A DNA stretch of 48,422 bases from the sequence record OR979723.1, one strand, 5' to 3'. The notes below the pieces were generated by a model. The model ran no database searches, was not told where the DNA came from, and saw nothing but the letters and a program-made list of their open reading frames with translations. This DNA is from Escherichia phage ETEP102. The translations under genes and the position numbers were made by a program. Below are positions 3,495-43,288 of this stretch, in pieces (within the stretch, counting starts at the first letter, position 1; every line of letters begins with the position of its first letter).

Positions 3495-4061
3495 GTGCAC
3501 GAAGCATGTGAGCAATTACTCAAGGATTTGCCTAAGTACAATGGCGATCCGTGTCACAGCACTGTCGATGCATTCGTTAGTGAAATGGCAAAAGCTCCGG
3601 ATGATGGCGTGAAGTGTTATTACCTTGTCGCAGATGAATTGACGAAGAACGGCAAGTTCACTTTCGGTAGCAATTTCGGTGAAGGCAAGGCGCTCACCAT
3701 GTCAACCGCGAAAATGGAACCACGCATCGGCGGTTACGGGTATGGCAATCGTCACGTATGGGCGGTTGGTGAATGTGAATCAGCACGCGATCGCAAGGTG
3801 GCAGTTTGCTACCATGTTAATAACGGCAGTGCGTTTATCAATGGTTGCGAGTACGCGTATGAAATTGATGAATGCGAACCAGGTTGCGAGCCTCGCCTTA
3901 TCCATATCGCACAAGATGCATTCATCTCTGATTTAAAAGGCGATTACCGATGGAAAGCAAAGAGAATTGGTAAGGTTATGAATGCCAAGGCAACGCTAGG
4001 TGACGCATACGCAATAGTAAATCCTGATTGCGGCGTAGTGGCTAAGTTCTATATCAAATAG
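3495..4061 (+). CDS. Cys-rich hypothetical protein (188 aa)
   Basis: ORF in track; first codon is GTG (in-frame TAG three codons upstream), an internal ATG start is possible; many Cys/Gly residues. Confidence 0.45.
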   Translation: MHEACEQLLKDLPKYNGDPCHSTVDAFVSEMAKAPDDGVKCYYLVADELTKNGKFTFGSNFGEGKALTMSTAKMEPRIGGYGYGNRHVWAVGECESARDRKVAVCYHVNNGSAFINGCEYAYEIDECEPGCEPRLIHIAQDAFISDLKGDYRWKAKRIGKVMNAKATLGDAYAIVNPDCGVVAKFYIK

Positions 4062-4134: not shown

Positions 4135-4278
4135 ATGCCGCATCAGCAGAGTAACAACAAGTCATGGACCAAGGCCGCAAGGGCTAAGCGTCGCGGTGAA
4201 CTTAAAGATTTCTTTATCAGTGCAGGCCACACACGTAAAGTGGCATTACAATTAGCCAAACAGAGCGAGAAACAATAA
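4135..4278 (+). CDS. small basic protein (47 aa)
   Basis: ATG with GAAAGGA upstream; MPHQQSNNKSWTKAARAKRRGELKDFF...; stop overlaps next start (TAATG). Confidence 0.4.
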   Translation: MPHQQSNNKSWTKAARAKRRGELKDFFISAGHTRKVALQLAKQSEKQ

Positions 4279-4895
4279 TGAATCAGCTTTACACCATGAT
4301 TAAGCATCACCTTCAAACGGTAGCGGTAAACAAGAAAGTTTACATCTTTGATTACGATGGTACTCTGTCGGACAGAACGCACCGCCTGCACAAGCTACCG
4401 ACAAAGGATTTGCGCCTCACTGAGTCATGGCTTGAATTTAACTCATTGAGCAAGTTCGATCGGCCATTCCAGGAAACGATTGACGTAATGAATAGCCTGT
4501 TCGCTTCCGGAGCTTTCATCATCGTGCTCACTGGTCGATCTGATGCGGTTGTTGAGGAATCAACGCAATGGCTGCATGATGCTGGCGCTAAATATAACGT
4601 TCTGGTCATGCGCCGGGCTGATGACAACCGAAAGGATACCATCATCAAGGAAGAGTTTTTACGATACATTGGCTTGCACCGCATCACCGCAGCGTGGGAT
4701 GATAGCGTTAACGTTATTAAGCACTTCCGAAGCCTCGGAATCACTACCTATCATGTGTGCGACTATGGCGATAACGTGCACTCCGCCCTTAAGTCTCACG
4801 GCGTAGAAAAAGTTTGCGAGCACGAATTTAGCGAGCCGCTACCTCCGCATGGTGTTCGCCAGTGCAAAAAATGCAATCTCGTAAGCGGTAAATAA
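4278..4895 (+). CDS. HAD-family polynucleotide 3'-phosphatase (T4 Pnk phosphatase-like)
   Basis: DxDGT motif (IFDYDGTL), LTGRSD, RRADDNRKDTIIKEEF, AWDDSV: pattern of the T4 Pnk C-terminal phosphatase domain as recalled from memory. Confidence 0.65.
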   Translation: MNQLYTMIKHHLQTVAVNKKVYIFDYDGTLSDRTHRLHKLPTKDLRLTESWLEFNSLSKFDRPFQETIDVMNSLFASGAFIIVLTGRSDAVVEESTQWLHDAGAKYNVLVMRRADDNRKDTIIKEEFLRYIGLHRITAAWDDSVNVIKHFRSLGITTYHVCDYGDNVHSALKSHGVEKVCEHEFSEPLPPHGVRQCKKCNLVSGK

Positions 4896-4944
4896 AACTA
4901 ACCTTAACGGGCGCACATCGCGCCCACTACTCAGGAATATAAAA

Positions 4945-5562
4945 ATGTCAAAGATTATCATTCTAAACGGTCCTGCTGGCGTAGGTAAAGACACGATCGG
5001 CAATGCACTGGCAGCAGATTACAACTGCATCCCTACCAGCTTCAAACGTCCGATGTTTGAAATTGCAGCATCCATCCTTGGGGCCAGGGATTTTTCAAAG
5101 TTCATCACAGCATACGACGACCGCGATCAGAAAGAGCAGCCTCAGGGCTTTCTCGGTGGCAAGACCTGCCGTGAGTTCATGATCTGGATTAGCGAAACAG
5201 TGGTCAAGCCGCTTTTTGGCAATCAGCAGTTCGGCAAATTGATGAGCGAACATATCCGTCTGTGTGATGAAGGATTCTGTTTTGTTTGCACTGATGGCGG
5301 GTTCCCTGACGAAGTGATCCAACTCCTTGAAGATGGTCACGATGTCACCCTGGTTCGCCTATTCATGGATGGCAAGACTTTCGATGGCGATAGACGTGAT
5401 TACATTCGTCTTAAGGAATTGTACTACCCTTATTACAAGAAATATAACGAGCATGATGTGCATCTGGTTAATGGTGATATTGAAGGCGGTGTGCTGTCGG
5501 TTGTTAGAGCTTGCGGTATCCGTCCTGCAATCGACGAGTGGGCCGACGATATTCCCTGGTAA
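4945..5562 (+). CDS. P-loop kinase (candidate polynucleotide 5'-kinase partner)
   Basis: Walker A GPAGVGKDT near N-terminus; adjacent to phosphatase gene. Confidence 0.55.
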   Translation: MSKIIILNGPAGVGKDTIGNALAADYNCIPTSFKRPMFEIAASILGARDFSKFITAYDDRDQKEQPQGFLGGKTCREFMIWISETVVKPLFGNQQFGKLMSEHIRLCDEGFCFVCTDGGFPDEVIQLLEDGHDVTLVRLFMDGKTFDGDRRDYIRLKELYYPYYKKYNEHDVHLVNGDIEGGVLSVVRACGIRPAIDEWADDIPW

Positions 5563-5580
5563 ATAGCACGAATTGCTAAG
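5563..5580 (+). promoter_or_regulatory. ATAGCACGAATTGCTAAG motif copy
   Basis: Immediately after TAA stop; 22 nt to TATAGT (5601-5606); ATG at 5636. Confidence 0.5.
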
Positions 5581-5600
5581 CCCGCTCCGGCGGGTTTTGT
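5581..5600 (+). terminator. hairpin plus T-run (terminator-like, embedded in promoter spacer)
   Basis: CCCGC-TCCG-GCGGG followed by TTTTGTT. Confidence 0.45.
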
Positions 5601-6978: not shown

Positions 6979-7053
6979 GCTCCGCTAGCTCAATTGGATA
7001 GCAGCAACGACCTTCTAAGTCGTATGTTACTGGTTCGAATCCAGTGCAGAGCG
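6979..7053 (+). tRNA. tRNA-Arg (anticodon TCT), encoded CCA follows at 7054-7056
   Basis: Hand-folded cloverleaf: acceptor 6979-6985/7046-7052 (one C-A mismatch), D-loop with GG, anticodon stem 7007-7011/7019-7023, loop CTTCTAA, T-loop TTCGAAT. Confidence 0.75.
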
Positions 7054-7060
7054 CCAATTT

Positions 7061-8235: not shown

Positions 8236-8748
8236 ATGATTAATGCAAAGCAGTTGCCAGACCTATCAATTCTAAACCATATATTTGATTATGATCCTGA
8301 GAGCGGCGTGCTTTACTGGAAGAACCCAACCAGTAAGAGGGTGAGGCCTGGCCGTGAGGCTGGAACGCTGCATAAACCAAGTGGAAGGTTACAGGTTCAA
8401 ATATCAGGTAGCATCTACAAAGTATCAAGAGTTGTGTTTTACATGCACTACGGAAGGCAACCAGAAGGAGTTGTTGACCATGTTGATCACAACACTCTGA
8501 ACAACAGGCCTGATAATTTAAGGGATGCCACGATGAGTCAGAACGGAATGAATAAATCAATGCAGTCAAATAATACATCTGGATATAAAGGCGTTAGCTT
8601 CCATAAAGGCAGGGGTGAGTTTATAGCTTACGCAAAAGTTGACGGAAAGATGGTGTTTGGTGGGTGGCATAAATCAGCGATAGACGCCGCTTACTCAGCA
8701 GCAAATCTAAGAGAAAAATTGCACGGAGAATTTGTACATCATGGCTAA
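8236..8748 (+). CDS. HNH homing endonuclease
   Basis: VVDHVDHNTLNNRPDNLR HNH core; YKGVSF...FIAYAKVDGK AP2-like tail; inserted between terminase genes. Confidence 0.8.
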   Translation: MINAKQLPDLSILNHIFDYDPESGVLYWKNPTSKRVRPGREAGTLHKPSGRLQVQISGSIYKVSRVVFYMHYGRQPEGVVDHVDHNTLNNRPDNLRDATMSQNGMNKSMQSNNTSGYKGVSFHKGRGEFIAYAKVDGKMVFGGWHKSAIDAAYSAANLREKLHGEFVHHG

Positions 8749-11645: not shown

Positions 11646-12339
11646 GAATCAGATTAACCGCAACCTTAGCGTTGCGGTAACTGAACTTGTATCTGCGATG
11701 AAGGACTCAGCGACAAGACTTAAGATTGACTCAGCGGAAGAGTTGGAGCAAGAGGATGGCTATCTTGATACCATTATAGCAGCGCTTCTTGCTTCTGTTG
11801 TCTCTACTCTGCCAGCCATTGGTGCCGCTATATACAGACAAAATTCAGCCAGGTTCCTGGTGCTGGCAATCAAGACTGGTGGCAAGTCATCTCCATCAGT
11901 TCTTGATCTGAAAGTTAACGGAATTAACGGAAACGAGTCATGGTATCGAGATGAGATGAGTCAGTGGATTTTCACCACGCGCAAATCAGCCAGCAAACTA
12001 CTTAACAATATCAAAGATGACTTTATTCAGACGGCCAGCCAGATTCAGACAGGAGATCACGTTAATTTGGCTGATAAGTACAAGATTTACCGCAAGAGAA
12101 CTGCTAATATAGCATCTGGAATTACGGCAAGCTTGAACTCCACTCTCATGCGCAGGCGGCTTGAGGATGCAGGCGTTAGCGAATACATATGGCATGGAAT
12201 GCTTGATGATCGAGAGAGATTATCTCACATCGCGCGAGAGGGTAAGAGCTTCAGCTTAAATAGCACTGATATTTTTCCCGGTCAGGAATACGGATGTCGC
12301 TGTTGGGCTGTGCCAGATTGGGAATCAGCAAAGGAGTAA
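11602..12339 (+). CDS. head morphogenesis protein (Mu F / SPP1 gp7-like)
   Basis: C-terminal GKSFSLNSTDIFPGQEYGCRCW typical of the family; follows portal. Confidence 0.6.
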   Translation: MKQVTTRWTYPQAIENQINRNLSVAVTELVSAMKDSATRLKIDSAEELEQEDGYLDTIIAALLASVVSTLPAIGAAIYRQNSARFLVLAIKTGGKSSPSVLDLKVNGINGNESWYRDEMSQWIFTTRKSASKLLNNIKDDFIQTASQIQTGDHVNLADKYKIYRKRTANIASGITASLNSTLMRRRLEDAGVSEYIWHGMLDDRERLSHIAREGKSFSLNSTDIFPGQEYGCRCWAVPDWESAKE

Positions 12340-12341
12340 AA

Positions 12342-13451
12342 ATGAAAGCAAAAGTTCGTTATGACTCGGCGAGTGTAAAGGCTCGCTTCGATGAAAATGG
12401 TTTTCTGGTGGACACGCCTGTCGTTGCGCGTGTCGGGGTGCAATCATACTTCCTGCCAGATGGATCTGAGCGTCGAGAGTTCAGACCAGCATCGGAGGTA
12501 TTCAAGCCTGATTCACTGGCAAGCTACCAGGGCAAGCCGATTACCTTGGGTCACGTGTTTGTTAACGTGGACAACGCGAAACAGGTTGTTGTGGGATCTG
12601 TGTCTGGATCAGCTGTGCGTCAGGACTCTAACGTTGTCGTTCCACTAACCGTCTACGACAAGGAATCCATTGAGAAAGCAAAGTCAGGTGTTGCTGGTGA
12701 GCTATCTGTGGGCTATTCTACTGTTGATGTTGAGACTCCTGGTTGGGGTAGCAATGAGACTGGAGAGTATAAGTTGGATGGAGATTACGATTCGCAAGAT
12801 GACATTCCTTCTGACTGGGTTCGCTTTGACGCGCTGCAAACTAACATCGTTGTCAACCACGTTGCCATGGTCTATAAAGGTCGAGCTGGTGTGGCGAAAT
12901 TGAATATGGACTCCCAGCAAGAAAACCCGTATACTGATGACGTTAAATCAAACATTGAGGAAAAAGACATGACAGTAAGATTGACTCAGCGGAAGGCGGA
13001 AGTTGAGGTAAGCAAGGATGTTGCAGACCACATTGCCAAACTTGATTCCGCCATTGAAGCGCAGAAGGCTAAAGTAGACACCATTGAAGCCGAACGCGAC
13101 GCACTGAAGGCGAAAGTTGACGGCATTCCCGCAGAGATTGAAAAGGCTGTTAAAGCTGCTAAAGCTGACGCTGAAGCGCTGGCCGCTCTGGTTACTGTAG
13201 CTACCGAGGCTGGTGTTAAGGCGGATGGTCTTGATGCTAAAGGTATCAAAGTTGCCTACGTTAAAGAAGTGTCTGGCCTTGACGTTTCTGAGAAATCTGA
13301 CGCATATATCGACGCGGCGTTCGACATTGCCAAGGATTCTGATAAAATGGCTGAAGTTCGTAAAGCTACTGTAGCTTCCGAAAAATCTGACGCAGATGAC
13401 GCACCTAAAAAATTAGACCCGCGCGCTCGTCTGGCTAAAATCAAAAAGTAA
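12342..13451 (+). CDS. putative scaffold (possibly protease-scaffold) protein
   Basis: ATG 12342 with AAGGAG upstream; Ala/Lys/Glu-rich coiled-coil-like C-terminus KAKVDTIEAERDALKAKVDGIPAEIEKAVKAAKADAEALAAL. Confidence 0.45.
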   Translation: MKAKVRYDSASVKARFDENGFLVDTPVVARVGVQSYFLPDGSERREFRPASEVFKPDSLASYQGKPITLGHVFVNVDNAKQVVVGSVSGSAVRQDSNVVVPLTVYDKESIEKAKSGVAGELSVGYSTVDVETPGWGSNETGEYKLDGDYDSQDDIPSDWVRFDALQTNIVVNHVAMVYKGRAGVAKLNMDSQQENPYTDDVKSNIEEKDMTVRLTQRKAEVEVSKDVADHIAKLDSAIEAQKAKVDTIEAERDALKAKVDGIPAEIEKAVKAAKADAEALAALVTVATEAGVKADGLDAKGIKVAYVKEVSGLDVSEKSDAYIDAAFDIAKDSDKMAEVRKATVASEKSDADDAPKKLDPRARLAKIKK

Positions 13452-35172: not shown

Positions 35173-37275
35173 ATGGCTATGCGCATTAAATCCATCAAAA
35201 AACAGATAGAGGAACTCGGTCCTCAGAAGATAAAAGAAATTCAGGATAAGTTTACCTTTGGTGACATGGTTCCGTATGAGTACCAGTGCGTGATGTATGA
35301 TGAGATCGGCAAGCGCATTGCTCGCTATAAGCATCCATTCATTGTTAAGGCTTCCGTATCTGCTGGTAAAACAATTGGCTTTGCCATGATCGCGTCTCGA
35401 GTTAAAGAGATGGGACTTTCAATGATGATACTTGCGCGCCAGGGCGACATCGTCGCTCAGGATAGCGAGGAGATCTCAAACTTCGGCGTTCCAAACTCTG
35501 TTTACTGTGCTGGCCTGAATACAAAATCCGCATACTTCCCTATAGTTGTAGGATCGGAAGGTTCAGTGGCGAACGGTCTATTCAAGGCTCTGGGTGACTT
35601 TACTCCAATGGTGCTGGGTATTGATGAATGTCACCAGGTAGACTGGGAAGACCTTGCTGCAGCCATCGGCAATGAAGAAACGATTGAGATGATGCTAACT
35701 GAAAAGGATGAGCGAGTATTCATTGATTACCCTAAAAATCGCGATGGTTATGTCAATGGTTATCTTAATGGCGTAGAGGTTGGCGCCCAGGTAATGGATA
35801 AGCAATTGCTAATCAGCCGGAAGACTGGCGAGCCTGTGTTGGGAACAAAGCGAAGCCAATACACGATCATAATCACTGAGCTAATGAGGCGCTGCAAAGA
35901 GAAGAATGGCAAGGAATTAAGGATATTCGGGATGACTGGTTCTGAGTTCAGAGGAACAGCTCCAATCGTAGTTGACAACCCAAAGCTACCTGGATTCTGG
36001 CGTGAGCAGGTGACTAATATTGACACAAATTACCTTATTGAGTTCGGATCTGTGGTTCCGACTGTTTTTGGTAGTGTCGGTGATGCTGGTTATGATCTTG
36101 ATGAGTTCAAGGCATCAAGTCAGGACGGCACGGCTGACTTCAGCCAGAAAGATATGAAGGCGATGGAAAAGAAAATCCATGACAACGCCAGCATGACCAA
36201 GCGAATCATGGAAATGGTTGTTGAGGAGGCAAAGAAGCGAAACGGGGTTCTTATTACATGCTCAGGGCAGCGCCACTGCAAAGAGGCAGCGAGCTATCTG
36301 CCACCTGACGCCACCTATGAGATCATCACCGAGAAGACAAACACCAAAAAGCGACAAGCAATACTGGAAGCGGCTAACCGTGGTGAAATTAAATACATTT
36401 TCCAGGTTATAGCGCTAACTACTGGAGTTAACGTTCCGTTTTGGGATTTCTCAGTCATCCTGCGTAAGATTGGTTCTCTTACACTACTGATCCAGCTTCT
36501 CGGTCGCGGAATGCGATTGCTTAAACCGTGGCAAAAAGCAATGGGTATGGTTAAGGAAGATCACCTTGTGTGGGATTTCGCGGGTTGCATGGACGAGTTA
36601 GGTCAGTTATACTTTGACCCCATCCTTGAGGAATCACAGTATCAGCGCCGCTTTGACGGTAAGAAAGAACCGAAGAAATGTGAGTTGTGCGGAACTGAGA
36701 ACAGTTTTTACGCTCGCCGTTGCATTCACAGAGACGAAAACGGCAATCGTTGTGAGTATTTCTGGAAGTCTCGCGTATGTGAAGACCAGATTGATGATCG
36801 CACTGGCGAAGTGCTCGCTAAGGGTTGCGGAACTGAGAATGACGTAGTTGCTAGAATATGCCGCTGCTGTGACGTGAGCTTGAAAGACCCCAATGACAAT
36901 CTGACTGGTAAGGCTTACACAAAAAACGACTGGTGCACAGTTAATAGCTTTGAAGTGACGCTGACGAGAAATCAGACTGGTATTCTTTATCGTTACGACC
37001 TTACCGACTCGATGGGGGTTAACTTCATTGCTTATGAAAAATTTTTCCCTCAATCAACGGCGCAGGTATGCCACACGATATGGAAACAAAAAGGTGTATT
37101 GCCTCATGTGCATGACAGCAAGATCGCAAAGTTAATGGCAGCTTACAGAAGTGCGAAAATGATTTTAAACAACGCTCACCACATAGCACATCCGGTGCGG
37201 GTAACACACCGAAAAAATGCAAAAGGTGATGATATTATTTCACGTAAAGATTTCGGATTGGATGGTAACTTATGA
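35173..37275 (+). CDS. SF2 DEAD/DEAH-box helicase with C-terminal Cys-rich domain
   Basis: Walker A SAGKT, Walker B GIDECHQ, C-terminal CELCG...CIHRD...CRCC cysteine clusters. Confidence 0.75.
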   Translation: MAMRIKSIKKQIEELGPQKIKEIQDKFTFGDMVPYEYQCVMYDEIGKRIARYKHPFIVKASVSAGKTIGFAMIASRVKEMGLSMMILARQGDIVAQDSEEISNFGVPNSVYCAGLNTKSAYFPIVVGSEGSVANGLFKALGDFTPMVLGIDECHQVDWEDLAAAIGNEETIEMMLTEKDERVFIDYPKNRDGYVNGYLNGVEVGAQVMDKQLLISRKTGEPVLGTKRSQYTIIITELMRRCKEKNGKELRIFGMTGSEFRGTAPIVVDNPKLPGFWREQVTNIDTNYLIEFGSVVPTVFGSVGDAGYDLDEFKASSQDGTADFSQKDMKAMEKKIHDNASMTKRIMEMVVEEAKKRNGVLITCSGQRHCKEAASYLPPDATYEIITEKTNTKKRQAILEAANRGEIKYIFQVIALTTGVNVPFWDFSVILRKIGSLTLLIQLLGRGMRLLKPWQKAMGMVKEDHLVWDFAGCMDELGQLYFDPILEESQYQRRFDGKKEPKKCELCGTENSFYARRCIHRDENGNRCEYFWKSRVCEDQIDDRTGEVLAKGCGTENDVVARICRCCDVSLKDPNDNLTGKAYTKNDWCTVNSFEVTLTRNQTGILYRYDLTDSMGVNFIAYEKFFPQSTAQVCHTIWKQKGVLPHVHDSKIAKLMAAYRSAKMILNNAHHIAHPVRVTHRKNAKGDDIISRKDFGLDGNL

Positions 37276-37769
37276 TTATAAACTTTGTCGAATACAAAGA
37301 TGGTGGGCTCTACTGGACTAAACCGTCAGGGCCAAGGGCTAGAGTTAGCATTGGATCAAGGGTAGGTCACGTAAATCGTGAAGGCTACAGGGTATTCAAG
37401 TTCGAAGGCGCTCACCTAAAGGAGCATAGGGTGATATGGTATATACATAATGGTGAAATACCAGAAGGGATGGAGGTTGATCACATAAATCACGAAAGGG
37501 ATGATAATAGAATTTCAAACTTAAGACTAGTTAGCAGATCCGACAACATGAAAAATACATCAATAAGAAAGTCGAATAGTAGCGGATTTACTGGTGTTAG
37601 TTGGTGCTCAACCAGTAAAAAGTGGAAGGCTCAGATACAAGTAAACGGAAAGAAAATATCGTTAGGTTACTTTAGTGATATTGATTTAGCTATAAGTGCA
37701 AGAACCGAGGCGAATATTAAATATAACTTCCACGACAATCATGGTGGCAAAAATGGCTATAAAAGATAA
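37272..37769 (+). CDS. HNH homing endonuclease
   Basis: EVDHINHERDDNRISNLR core and TGVSW...WKAQIQVNGK tail, paralogous to 8236-8748; ATGA overlap with helicase stop. Confidence 0.8.
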   Translation: MIINFVEYKDGGLYWTKPSGPRARVSIGSRVGHVNREGYRVFKFEGAHLKEHRVIWYIHNGEIPEGMEVDHINHERDDNRISNLRLVSRSDNMKNTSIRKSNSSGFTGVSWCSTSKKWKAQIQVNGKKISLGYFSDIDLAISARTEANIKYNFHDNHGGKNGYKR

Positions 37770-40484: not shown

Positions 40485-41627
40485 ATGGCTATTCAGAAAA
40501 TTAGTGACGAACAATTCATTGCCGAGCGCGAAGCTGGTAAAACTCTACGTCAAATAGCTCAAGAATACGGTATGAATATTCGAACTGTAGAGCAGCGTTC
40601 AAGTCGCCTCGCGAAGCGTGGAGAGTTTCACGGAAACAAGCACGTAAGCGTACATGTTCCAGAAGGGTTTCAGGTTAAAGGTACATCGACAATGATTCGA
40701 GCCGATGGCTCAGAGGTTGTGCGGTGGGTAAAGACAGATCAGGACAAGGAGAAGTTAGCCGCCATGATGGATGCCGCGATTGAAGCATTCTGTGAAGAAA
40801 TCCCACGCGCAGATCCTCAGCCTATTCTTGGCGAGCCTAACTATGATGAGAATCTCCTGGCACTGTATCCAGTGTTCGATCTACACATCGGCGCAATGGC
40901 ACACAAGCATGAGTGCGGTGAAAACTACAGCACCGACATCTCTGAGAAAGTCCTCAAGAACTTCTTTGATTACTCGGTTGGCGTAGCTCCTAAAGCAAAG
41001 AAAGCCGTATTGCTAATCGGTGGTGACTTCCTTCACTCTGATGGCCTGGACGCTGTAACGCCCGCAAGCGGTCACGTACTGGATCAGGATAGTCGATACG
41101 CTAAGCTCGTGCATGTTGCAATTCGTTCCGTCCGCCGCGCTGTGGCAAAAATGCTGGATAAACACGAGGATGTCGAAATTCAGATCATTGAGGGCAATCA
41201 TGATCAGGCGGGAATGATTTGGTTGCGTGCTGCCATGGCTGCATACTTCGAAGATGAATCGCGCGTAAAAGTTGACGTATCCCCAATGATTCTCCACCGA
41301 ACCAAGTGGGGTAAGACGCTACTCGGATACACTCATGGTCACACCATGAAGAAGGCTGACACTCGACTGGCGGCGATGGCAACAGATTTCCGTGAGGAGT
41401 TCGGGACCAGTAAATATATCTATACGCATAGCGGCCATTGGCACCATCAGACGATCACGGAAGGAACTTTGGGAATTGATGAGGTTCACGGTCAACTAGG
41501 AGCAAAAGACGCATATGCGGCTCGCGGCGGATGGCGCTCTTATCGACAGGCAGCTGTGATCTTGTATTCAAAAGAGTTCGGTGAGGTTGGTCGATTCGTT
41601 TACCGTCCAGAGATGAGTGATATTTGA
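40485..41627 (+). CDS. calcineurin-like metallophosphoesterase with N-terminal HTH domain
   Basis: Phosphoesterase motifs DLHIG, GGDFLHSD, EGNHDQ, GHTH, GHWHH; N-terminal HTH-like GKTLRQIAQEYGMNIRTVEQ. Confidence 0.6.
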   Translation: MAIQKISDEQFIAEREAGKTLRQIAQEYGMNIRTVEQRSSRLAKRGEFHGNKHVSVHVPEGFQVKGTSTMIRADGSEVVRWVKTDQDKEKLAAMMDAAIEAFCEEIPRADPQPILGEPNYDENLLALYPVFDLHIGAMAHKHECGENYSTDISEKVLKNFFDYSVGVAPKAKKAVLLIGGDFLHSDGLDAVTPASGHVLDQDSRYAKLVHVAIRSVRRAVAKMLDKHEDVEIQIIEGNHDQAGMIWLRAAMAAYFEDESRVKVDVSPMILHRTKWGKTLLGYTHGHTMKKADTRLAAMATDFREEFGTSKYIYTHSGHWHHQTITEGTLGIDEVHGQLGAKDAYAARGGWRSYRQAAVILYSKEFGEVGRFVYRPEMSDI

Positions 41628-42218: not shown

Positions 42219-42704
42219 ATGAAGCAGAAGCTGTTAATTAGCGCGGCGACAGCTGCGGCAATATACATCGCAGCACCGCTTATTGAGCTTGTTGAGGGTG
42301 TGGAGAACAGACCTTACATTGACATTGCTGGGGTGAAAACCGTCTGCGCTGGGATCACTGGCCCAGACGTAGTTTGGGGTAAAACTTACAGTAACAGGGA
42401 GTGCCGGAGCCTGCTGGAGAAACACATTCAGATTCATGTTAAGCATGTTCAGAACGCCGTCACCTACCCAATTGCACCAGAGACAATGGCGGCTTTAATC
42501 AGTTTTAGCTACAATGTTGGCGGCTCAGCGATGAGGAAATCTACTGCCGTTAAGTTAATTAACCAGGGTAAGATTGAGCAGGGTTGCAAGGCTCTCGGGA
42601 TGTGGACAAAGGCTACCGTTAATGGCAAGAAGGTTGTCGTTAAGGGGTTAGTGAATCGCAGGAATGAGGAGATTAAGTTATGTTTAAGTGGATTGCAGCG
42701 TTAG
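42219..42704 (+). CDS. SAR endolysin (lysozyme-like)
   Basis: N-terminal signal-anchor-release-like segment LLISAATAAAIYIAAPLI then E-x8-D-x5-T catalytic triad ELVEGVENRPYIDIAGVKT. Confidence 0.8.
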   Translation: MKQKLLISAATAAAIYIAAPLIELVEGVENRPYIDIAGVKTVCAGITGPDVVWGKTYSNRECRSLLEKHIQIHVKHVQNAVTYPIAPETMAALISFSYNVGGSAMRKSTAVKLINQGKIEQGCKALGMWTKATVNGKKVVVKGLVNRRNEEIKLCLSGLQR

Positions 42705-43069
42705 TAATGTGCATGGCTTTATCTGGGTGCTCAGCAACATCTGCGCTGACTGGTTTAATTGGCAGCAAGCCAGAAATTAGCGCGCAGGCTGGGGCCGAGA
42801 ACGTGAAACAAACGGTAGGCGTTACCGGAAAGGTTGATAAGTCAAACGACAACGACACCAATATCAAAGACTCAAAGGTAGGAAAGGTTGATACGTCAAG
42901 CGGGAAGTCTGTCAGCACATCAAGCATCAAGGCTGACACCATCATCGCTGATAAGATTGAGATCAGGAATGAGGAGGTAGGTGGAAGAATTGCATTTGGA
43001 CTTGCTTTAATTCTAATTAGCCTATTGCTTTTCTCGTTCACGATATGGACTACTTTTCGCAAAAAATAA
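42680..43069 (+). CDS. unimolecular spanin (T1 gp11-like)
   Basis: N-terminal lipoprotein signal with lipobox LSGC and C-terminal TM helix IAFGLALILISLLLFSF; overlaps endolysin 3' end. Confidence 0.65.
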   Translation: MFKWIAALVMCMALSGCSATSALTGLIGSKPEISAQAGAENVKQTVGVTGKVDKSNDNDTNIKDSKVGKVDTSSGKSVSTSSIKADTIIADKIEIRNEEVGGRIAFGLALILISLLLFSFTIWTTFRKK

Positions 43070-43071
43070 AA

Positions 43072-43095
43072 GGAGCCGAAAGGCTCCATTTTTTT
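43072..43095. terminator. bidirectional rho-independent terminator
   Basis: GGAGCC-GAAA-GGCTCC flanked by A-run and T-run between convergent operons. Confidence 0.7.
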
Positions 43096-43288
43096 ATCCA
43101 AATATTTGCACAGGCAGCAACAATTCACCTTCATTATTGCATAGAGTATGCTCATCACGTCGTCCGGCGCGCATGGATGAGTTAAGCATTGAAGGAAGGG
43201 CTTGGTTAAGCCAGTCCTCACTGATACCATTCTCAGAACTGCATCTGATTATCGCGTCGATTACGACCTGGCTTTCCGAATAACTCAT
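43094..43288 (-). CDS. possible overlapping small ORF (64 aa)
   Basis: ORF in track overlapping the last 56 nt of upstream gene in another frame; weak RBS. Confidence 0.2.
   Translation of the reverse strand: MSYSESQVVIDAIIRCSSENGISEDWLNQALPSMLNSSMRAGRRDEHTLCNNEGELLLPVQIFG

Follow-up and report, generated by a model that had tools for sequence, protein, structure and literature searches.

Two adjacent genes of Escherichia phage ETEP102, one encoding a HAD-superfamily phosphatase and the other a P-loop kinase, raise the question of whether they form a T4-type polynucleotide kinase/3'-phosphatase split into its two parts, as the original prediction held, or a pair with some other purpose. The sequence analyzed here (OR979723.1, 48,422 nt; hereafter the window, position 1 being its first letter) is the genome of a T1-like coliphage of the Drexlerviridae, and its nearest records over this region are phages P817, TH30 and ESCO41, at ~86% nucleotide identity. 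Both proposed ORFs, ORF A (4278–4895) and ORF B (4945–5562), are found at exactly these coordinates on the plus strand, each encoding 205 aa, and every motif quoted for them is present (FDYDGT, LTGRSD, RRADDNRKDTIIKEEF and AAWDDSV in ORF A; LNGPAGVGKDT in ORF B). They are indeed separate genes, with the phosphatase 5' of the kinase and a 49-nt spacer between the two.

Upstream of the pair, a 47-aa ORF on the plus strand (4135–4278), for which we find no family match, ends in a stop codon that overlaps the ORF A start codon (TAATG), and this ORF probably shares a transcription unit with ORF A. The spacer contains a GC-rich hairpin with a GGGCGC/GCGCCC core (4905–4929, unstranded) that is not followed by a T-run on the plus strand, and a ribosome-binding site, AGGA, lies 8–9 nt 5' of the ORF B start. 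A terminator-like hairpin with a T-run (5578–5597, plus strand) is located 16 nt past the kinase stop codon and is the probable end of the transcription unit; a tRNA-Arg(TCT) lies 1.4 kb farther 3'.

Family assignments of ORF A and ORF B

Pfam, PHROGs, hhalign and fold comparison all assign ORF A to the Pnkp-type HAD phosphatases. The protein matches Pfam PF25109 (HAD_PNKP) with 63.5 bits relative to a curated cut-off of 27.6 (E = 3e-17) and phrog_415 with E = 1.6e-61, and in a reciprocal check the phosphatase part of T4 Pnkp matches phrog_415 at 3e-24. A PDB sequence search with ORF A returns the T4 Pnkp phosphatase domain and Pnkp1, and hhalign aligns the ORF A profile with T4 Pnkp residues 139–297 (probability 96.9, E = 1.3e-10). 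The best Foldseek matches of an AF2 model of ORF A (pLDDT 81.5) are 1ltq and 5uj0 (target TM-score 0.76–0.79) and 4xrp, with the AphA class B nucleotidases ranking behind these. ORF A thus shares both PF25109 and the fold with the T4 Pnkp phosphatase domain (1LTQ, 5UJ0).

The catalytic residues of T4 Pnkp all have counterparts in ORF A, on the plus strand throughout. HAD motif I, D25-Y-D27-G-T29 (4350–4364), supplies the equivalents of Asp165, the nucleophile, and Asp167, the acid/base; motif II, T85-G-R87 (4530–4538), those of Ser211 and Arg213; motif III, D120-T-I-I-K124 (4635–4649), those of Asp254 and Lys258; and motif IV, D141-D142 (4698–4703), those of Asp277 and the Mg2+ ligand Asp278, while R36 corresponds to Arg176 by alignment counting. 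D25, D27, T29, R36, T85, R87, D120, K124, D141 and D142 are invariant in 21 ORF A homologues. Arg176, Arg213 and Asp254 of T4 Pnkp we take to be essential; the roles of Asp165, Asp167, Ser211, Lys258 and Asp278 have been described (PMC3592404).

ORF A differs from T4 Pnkp in several respects: identity is only ~22–25%, and ORF A lacks both the Pnk kinase domain and an RNA ligase partner. It also has ~14–16 strongly conserved residues beyond T4 Pnkp after motif I, within a family-specific insert (approximately residues 37–60, 4386–4457, plus strand; consensus LPTKDLxLTESWxEFN) that forms two short helices in the AF2 model and could be a mini-cap. A zinc-knuckle-like Cys/His tail, C180-x-H182 ... 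C196-x2-C199 (4815–4874, plus strand), is variable, with zero, one or two copies across ORF A homologues. The likeness to the T4 Pnk phosphatase that had been pointed out for the HAD protein is therefore borne out by Pfam, by fold and by the full set of catalytic residues, and by family ORF A is a stand-alone T4-Pnkp-type 3'-phosphatase. Its GenBank relatives carry the name "polynucleotide kinase", a misnomer because there is no kinase domain, and thousands of phage records name the HAD protein in this way.

ORF B, by contrast with the expectation of a split T4 enzyme, is assigned to the gp1/Dnk family of P-loop kinases by phrog_139, hhalign and Foldseek. No Pfam or NCBIfam model scores above threshold, NCBIfam giving only sub-threshold noise, and phmmer against PDB sequences returns nothing. 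ORF B does match phrog_139, "deoxynucleoside monophosphate kinase", with E = 1.3e-41 over profile positions 82–252, much as the characterized dNMP kinase T4 gp1 does (1.8e-65, positions 83–261); T4 Pnk does not match phrog_139, nor does ORF B match phrog_505 or AAA_33. Given E-values of 3e-17 (Pfam) and 1.6e-61 (phrog_415) for ORF A and of 1.3e-41 (phrog_139) for ORF B, the family matches of both proteins are far above chance.

Searching 1.84 billion representatives with a profile finds 3,815 relatives of ORF B, roughly 1,400 phage genomes carry the kinase, and a profile built from 129 of the relatives was used for comparison with gp1, Dnk and Pnk. In hhalign, 175 columns of this profile are colinear with T4 gp1 (E = 4.7e-8). 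With T5 Dnk it pairs SFAKPVYELASVILG with ORF B SFKRPMFEIAASILG (E = 2.7e-9); against T4 Pnk, only 25 P-loop residues align. A narrow alignment of 25 sequences aligns the P-loop alone with both T4 gp1 and T4 Pnk and does not discriminate between them, the T4 Pnk match covering 25–26 residues over the two comparisons. The 129-sequence HMM scores 18–22 bits against single sequences, which is weak for all three targets, and the assignment does not depend on these scores alone. The 50 top Foldseek matches of the ORF B model are all NMP or small-molecule kinases, among which gp1 (1DEK) has the highest query TM-score and ranks fifth by E-value.

The motifs that ORF B shares with gp1 and Dnk, i.e., GKDT, F-x-x-P-h, an xPR/xRR helix and D-x-x-x-x-x-E, are distributed along the plus-strand gene. 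The P-loop, G9-PAGVGKD-T17 (4969–4995), reads GKDT as in both enzymes; S32-F-K-R-P-M-F38 (5038–5058), after strand 2, is equivalent to SFAKPVY of T5 Dnk and LAGPIK of T4 gp1; and D117-GGFPD-E123 (5293–5313) is equivalent to DVRFPNE and DTRQDHE, respectively. A lid-like segment, G143-KTFDGDRRD-Y153 (5371–5403), carries the family-invariant D149 and R151, and residues invariant across the family also include K15, D16, K34, R60, K63, R76, E84, K88, D117 and E123. ORF B itself departs from its family at two near-invariant positions, M141 (R in 88%) and R150 (S in 96%).

Two absences bear on what ORF B might phosphorylate. The S32–F38 motif occupies the position of the Pnk Asp35/Arg38 motif, and the general-base Asp found there after strand 2 in T4 Pnk is missing, ORF B having invariant S32, K34 and P36 instead, an equivalence of S32-F-K34-x-P36 with Asp35 that reflects secondary-structure register rather than superposition; that Asp35 is the general base of T4 Pnk is described in PMC3592404. 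The Arg of the D-x-R motif after strand 3 (PDTR in gp1, TDVR in Dnk) is likewise absent from the ORF B family, which has an invariant D117-G-G119-F, and by sequence this replacement could mean that the acceptor substrate differs from that of gp1 and Dnk. ORF B is also only ~12–14% identical to gp1 and Dnk and, at 205 aa, shorter than either (241 and 250 aa), lacking the gp1 43–124 insertion.

We conclude that ORF B is, by family, a gp1/Dnk-type dNMP kinase and not a Pnk-type kinase. The prediction of a separate P-loop kinase in an ORF of its own is correct, the P-loop lying at 4969–4995; that of a split T4 Pnk is not, as ORF B has no homology to the Pnk kinase domain outside the P-loop, and its proposed activity as a 5'-OH polynucleotide kinase conflicts with both the gp1/Dnk assignment and the missing general-base Asp. 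A nucleotide kinase beside a nucleotidase had been named as the outcome that would overturn the original prediction: the kinase does fall, by family assignment only, among the dNMP kinases, while ORF A is by family no generic nucleotidase. The kinase is labeled variously in existing records, "hypothetical", "replication factor C" and "phosphomevalonate kinase" among them.

Gene coupling, fusions and neighboring genes

We find that the two genes are clearly coupled. Of 88 loci selected through the kinase, 78 have the HAD gene 5' of it and on the same strand; the HAD gene always comes first, and gaps range from −4 nt to ~2.1 kb. Of 80 loci selected through the HAD gene, 78 have the kinase downstream, with a gap of at most 10 nt in 40, and a Pnk-type kinase is beside the HAD gene in none. 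The pair extends beyond Drexlerviridae to Kagunavirus and Autographiviridae with its order invariant, and it moves as a unit, occupying the early left end in the window and a position after the exonuclease in Webervirus. Exceptions are of several kinds: TLS-like genomes have 0.6–2 kb of small ORFs between the two genes, in a few genomes only one of the pair is present, and kinases of the ORF B family also occur without a HAD gene, accompanied by nothing but a metallophosphoesterase, or by themselves in large phages. JulesPiccard, which by annotation has the kinase without the HAD gene, is not such a case, its upstream "hypothetical" protein being the HAD phosphatase by HMM.

Natural fusions of a HAD_PNKP domain to the kinase, HAD first, make up three protein clusters (P0261, P0391 and P0266) that are 37–74% identical and share a conserved linker, and two samples contain contigs with the P0261 gene model, including a phage contig of 60.7 kb. 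The spread of identities across three clusters, the conserved linker and the recurrence of one model in two samples lead us to reject assembly or gene-calling artifacts as their source. These fusions carry the gp1-like kinase and not a Pnk kinase. Because synteny is near-obligate and the natural fusions have the same order, ORF A and ORF B are functionally linked.

The order phosphatase then kinase, which had been singled out as the reverse of that in T4, is thus present, and it is unremarkable among end-healing enzymes, as mammalian PNKP and Runella HD-Pnk also have the phosphoesterase N-terminal to the kinase. A bifunctional enzyme of the T4 Pnkp type is a single polypeptide, and the window has two ORFs. 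PNKP, HD-Pnk and Clostridium thermocellum Pnkp resemble the pair in combining a 3'-phosphoesterase with a P-loop kinase; they differ in that their kinases are of the Pnk/Clp1 type with a general-base Asp, which ORF B is not, and in that these systems include or recruit a ligase, with none in the window. The gp1 and Dnk genes, for their part, show no linkage to any HAD gene, whereas ORF B-family kinases almost always lie downstream of a Pnkp-type HAD gene.

A third gene often accompanies the pair. In the window, a gene of the calcineurin-like metallophosphoesterase family with an N-terminal HTH-like stretch (40485–41627, plus strand; phrog_704, "DNA repair exonuclease") sits upstream of the lysis genes, away from the pair, and phmmer finds nothing for it among PDB sequences. 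In Webervirus, Kagunavirus and Aeromonas phage Ahp1, a metallophosphoesterase gene is directly upstream of the HAD gene, an arrangement seen at 20 of the 88 kinase-chosen and 31 of the 80 HAD-chosen loci, and one lies directly downstream of the P0261 fusion; these cassette metallophosphoesterases fall in phrog_704 or phrog_221. Bacterial Pnkp likewise has a metallophosphoesterase partner (PMC3675462), as in the cassette.

Two further contexts point in different directions. In the 142-kb Salmonella phage vB_Sen_SG_WM_RUS_R7, the gene for an ORF B-family kinase (6.5e-54) overlaps that for an NT5C-like 5'(3')-deoxyribonucleotidase, a HAD protein of a different family from ORF A that scores 22.3 bits, just under the Pfam cut-off, and the pair is followed by thymidylate synthase and RNR, a context that argues for mononucleotide metabolism. 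The R7 pair is like that of the window in joining this kinase family to a HAD-superfamily partner, and unlike it in that the HAD gene is downstream of the kinase, the pair sitting inside a thymidylate synthase/RNR cluster. Pm5460-like podophages have overlapping genes for a metallophosphoesterase, the kinase and an ATP-dependent DNA ligase, with no HAD gene, an order that can be read as support for repair, although T7 also places its ligase near its nucleotide kinase.

Ligase search and the proposed tRNA repair

No ligase domain is detected by Pfam or PHROGs in the window ORFs of at least 150 aa, a scan that covered all but the tape-measure ORF, the central tail-fiber ORF and one shadow ORF, and T4 Rnl1, T5 LigA/LigB and a phage ATP-dependent DNA ligase used as queries against the window return nothing, on which grounds we reject a hidden ligase. 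The reported absence of a ligase from the window therefore holds. The accompanying statement that no ORF contains KxDG is literally wrong, K-x-D-G tetrapeptides being present in seven window ORFs of at least 100 aa (e.g., KVDG in the HNH ORF at 8236–8748 and three in that at 12294–13451); the conclusion stands because none of them lies in a nucleotidyltransferase domain. Nor is a ligase found within 6–10 kb of any HAD and kinase pair in related loci.

The suggestion that the pair heals broken tRNA for a host ligase is unlikely to be correct, as there is no Rnl-type ligase and the substrates of RtcB are incompatible. In E. coli, RtcB uses 3'-P or 2',3'>p ends as they are and ligates them to 5'-OH ends, so healing would remove the substrates it needs.

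Proposed nucleotide supply and competing readings

The reading that we favor, and to which we assign about an even chance, is that the pair is a nucleotide-supply module that recycles host nucleic acid, and not a split polynucleotide kinase. It draws on the families to which the two proteins belong, on the full set of catalytic residues, on the linkage and fusion of the genes, and on the larger phage in which the kinase lies among nucleotide-metabolism genes. We infer the substrates and the order of the steps as follows. ORF B would convert (d)NMPs from host nucleic acid to (d)NDPs; these would pass to Ndk and the polymerase of the host, genes for a DNA polymerase and for RNR being absent from T1-like phages. 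ORF A, acting via an Asp25-phosphate intermediate, would strip 3'-phosphates from the ends of DNA fragments, or from pNp and 3'-(d)NMPs, and thereby keep the breakdown products usable by exonucleases and by the kinase. The metallophosphoesterase, as a nuclease, would complete the set, being encoded directly upstream in many relatives and at the distant site in the window. T7 gp1.7, a nucleotide kinase unrelated in sequence to ORF B and without a P-loop, phosphorylates dNMPs released from degraded host DNA, the very role proposed here.

The pair is already annotated in related papers and GenBank records. For Drexlerviridae, a 2026 paper describes exonuclease, PNK and dNMP kinase genes in this order and proposes a role in "enhancing nucleotide supply" (PMC13164509), and a TLS reannotation paper, in which T1 and TLS are described as degrading host DNA and reusing the nucleotides, names both genes likewise, as PNK and dNMP kinase (PMC11447400); papers on retron Eco2 and ApeA mention PNK only as a reagent. 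What is added here is that the kinase is of the gp1 type rather than the Pnk type, that synteny is near-obligate, that natural fusions exist, and that the pair belongs to a wider three-gene cassette. Linked as they are, at times in one polypeptide and in many cases beside a metallophosphoesterase gene, the two genes define a testable module in T1-like model phages, for which no genes have ever been assigned to the path that leads from host DNA to the precursors of phage DNA. Were ORF B a plain dNMP kinase, an annotation would be corrected and this gap in T1 biology filled; were it to act on 5'-OH ends, it would represent a new type of end-healing enzyme.

Several observations count against nucleotide supply. 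ORF B is distant from gp1 in identity, its single-sequence HMM scores are weak, it has D-G-G for D-x-R, and the window kinase departs from its family at M141 and R150. The gp1 and Dnk kinases themselves lack HAD linkage, the hallmark of end-healing enzymes is a kinase strictly linked and fused to a Pnkp-type 3'-phosphatase, and in Pm5460-like phages the kinase gene overlaps a DNA ligase gene. We know of no nuclease that leaves 3'-phosphate DNA ends in T1 infection, and the need of a salvage pathway for a 3'-phosphatase is therefore conjectural.

Less probably, an enzyme of dNMP-kinase lineage may have been recruited as the 5'-kinase partner of the Pnkp-type 3'-phosphatase, often together with the metallophosphoesterase. 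More than a thousand phage genomes would then carry an end-healing cassette that is non-orthologous and ligase-less, with breaks in DNA or RNA, or breakdown products in the form of 3'-phosphorylated oligo- or mononucleotides, as its substrates and not simply 5'-dNMPs. Its polynucleotide version, taken alone, we consider unlikely: here the gp1-like kinase would phosphorylate 5'-OH polynucleotide ends beside the Pnkp-type 3'-phosphatase, converting 3'-P/5'-OH breaks in DNA or RNA to ends that a host ligase could seal, with the metallophosphoesterase taking part in relatives. By family and fold, ORF A is a true phosphatase of the Pnkp type, and the near-obligate synteny and same-order fusions are as expected of bifunctional end-healing enzymes. 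The overlapping metallophosphoesterase, kinase and ATP-dependent DNA ligase genes of Pm5460-like phages are consistent with such a function, and the Cys/His tail of ORF A could bind nucleic acid. The combination of metallophosphoesterase and kinase also recalls bacterial Pnkp (PMC3675462).

More doubtful still is a version in which the substrates are mononucleotides or short oligonucleotides, ORF B converting Np to pNp on the 5'-OH of 3'-(d)NMPs and short 3'-phosphorylated fragments and ORF A then converting pNp to pN, such that the products of 3'-phosphate-forming RNases or DNases would become usable 5'-nucleotides. T4 Pnkp is known to accept 3'-mononucleotides, including 3'-dTMP (PMC3592404), ORF A structurally resembles the AphA 3'/5'-nucleotidases and has its extra insert at the cap position, ORF B departs from gp1 and Dnk at D-x-R, and this scheme would explain why the kinase and 3'-phosphatase are inseparable. 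Against it, a general base should be required to phosphorylate a 5'-OH, and ORF B has none at the Pnk position, kinases of the ORF B family also occur without the HAD gene, and a 3'-phosphate-forming nuclease is not in evidence in these phages.

That the two proteins have unrelated functions and are adjacent through inherited early-region synteny, a reading compatible with the intervening small ORFs of TLS-like genomes and the few genomes with one gene only, is highly improbable given an order that is invariant across Drexlerviridae, Kagunavirus and Autographiviridae, the movement of the pair as a unit between two genomic positions, and three independent fusion clusters.

Kinase and HAD genes in other arrangements

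We find that the kinase family of ORF B (window 4945-5562, +), a P-loop kinase of the T4 gp1/T5 Dnk family, also occurs beside other partners than the T4 Pnkp-type HAD phosphatase encoded by ORF A (window 4278-4895, +). In the Salmonella phage vB_Sen_SG_WM_RUS_R7 (L172:3995-5195), an ORF B-family kinase gene overlaps a gene for an NT5C-like deoxyribonucleotidase, and thymidylate synthase and RNR genes adjoin the two; this is a second, independent pairing of a kinase with a HAD protein. Pm5460-like Autographiviridae (L174:2924-5505; L078, L081-L086) carry contiguous genes for a metallophosphoesterase, the kinase and an ATP-dependent DNA ligase, a set from which the HAD is absent. Two HAD-bearing T1-like contigs, L095 (46,219 bp) and L169, lack the kinase despite at least 3 kb of downstream sequence.

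Residue-level variation in the HAD and the kinase

The C-terminus of ORF A carries a Cys-x-His ... Cys-x2-Cys tail (residues 180-199; window 4815-4874) which looks like a zinc knuckle. Among homologues this tail is missing, as in the Rtp-type proteins of 179 aa, single, or duplicated, as in P0155, P0162 and P0172. In the HAD-kinase fusion proteins P0261 and P0391 (L003:9143-10354), the HAD half has Ser in place of D120 (T4 Asp254), with the remaining catalytic residues intact, and the phosphatase of these fusions may be altered. ORF B itself has unusual residues at two positions: residue 141 (window 5365-5367) is Met, common to its close subgroup, where 88% of the 129 family members have Arg, and residue 150 (window 5392-5394) is Arg, a substitution found in no other of the 25 close homologues aligned, where 96% of the same family have Ser.

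Metallophosphoesterase partners

The "DNA repair exonuclease"/metallophosphoesterase partners (window 40485-41627; L008:4482-5456; L010:4389-5519) all possess an N-terminal HTH-like stretch, with weak matches to HTH_23, GerE and HTH_Tnp_1 at approximately residues 10-45. The Metallophos signal in these partners is weak and lies C-terminal to this stretch; for the window protein there is no Metallophos match at E ≤ 1.

Surroundings and annotation of the pair

The spacer between ORF A and ORF B contains a GC-rich hairpin (window 4905-4929) that lacks a T-run on the coding strand and may act in the processing or stability of RNA. At 1.4 kb downstream of the two genes is a tRNA-Arg gene with anticodon TCT (window 6979-7056), which also occurs in ESCO41 and JulesPiccard. 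Its role could be in codon supply or in substituting for a tRNA attacked by host nucleases. Neither the 188-aa ORF just upstream of the pair (window 3495-4061) nor a 185-aa ORF elsewhere (window 42673-43230, -) has a Pfam or PHROG match.

GenBank names for the pair are highly inconsistent: the HAD appears as "polynucleotide kinase", "kinase-phosphatase", "acid phosphatase" or "kinase", and the kinase as "hypothetical", "ATPase", "replication factor C large subunit", "phosphomevalonate kinase", "adenylate kinase" or "dNMP kinase". The window also encodes two HNH endonuclease ORFs (8236-8748 and 37272-37769), one of them an insertion that separates the small terminase gene from the large one.
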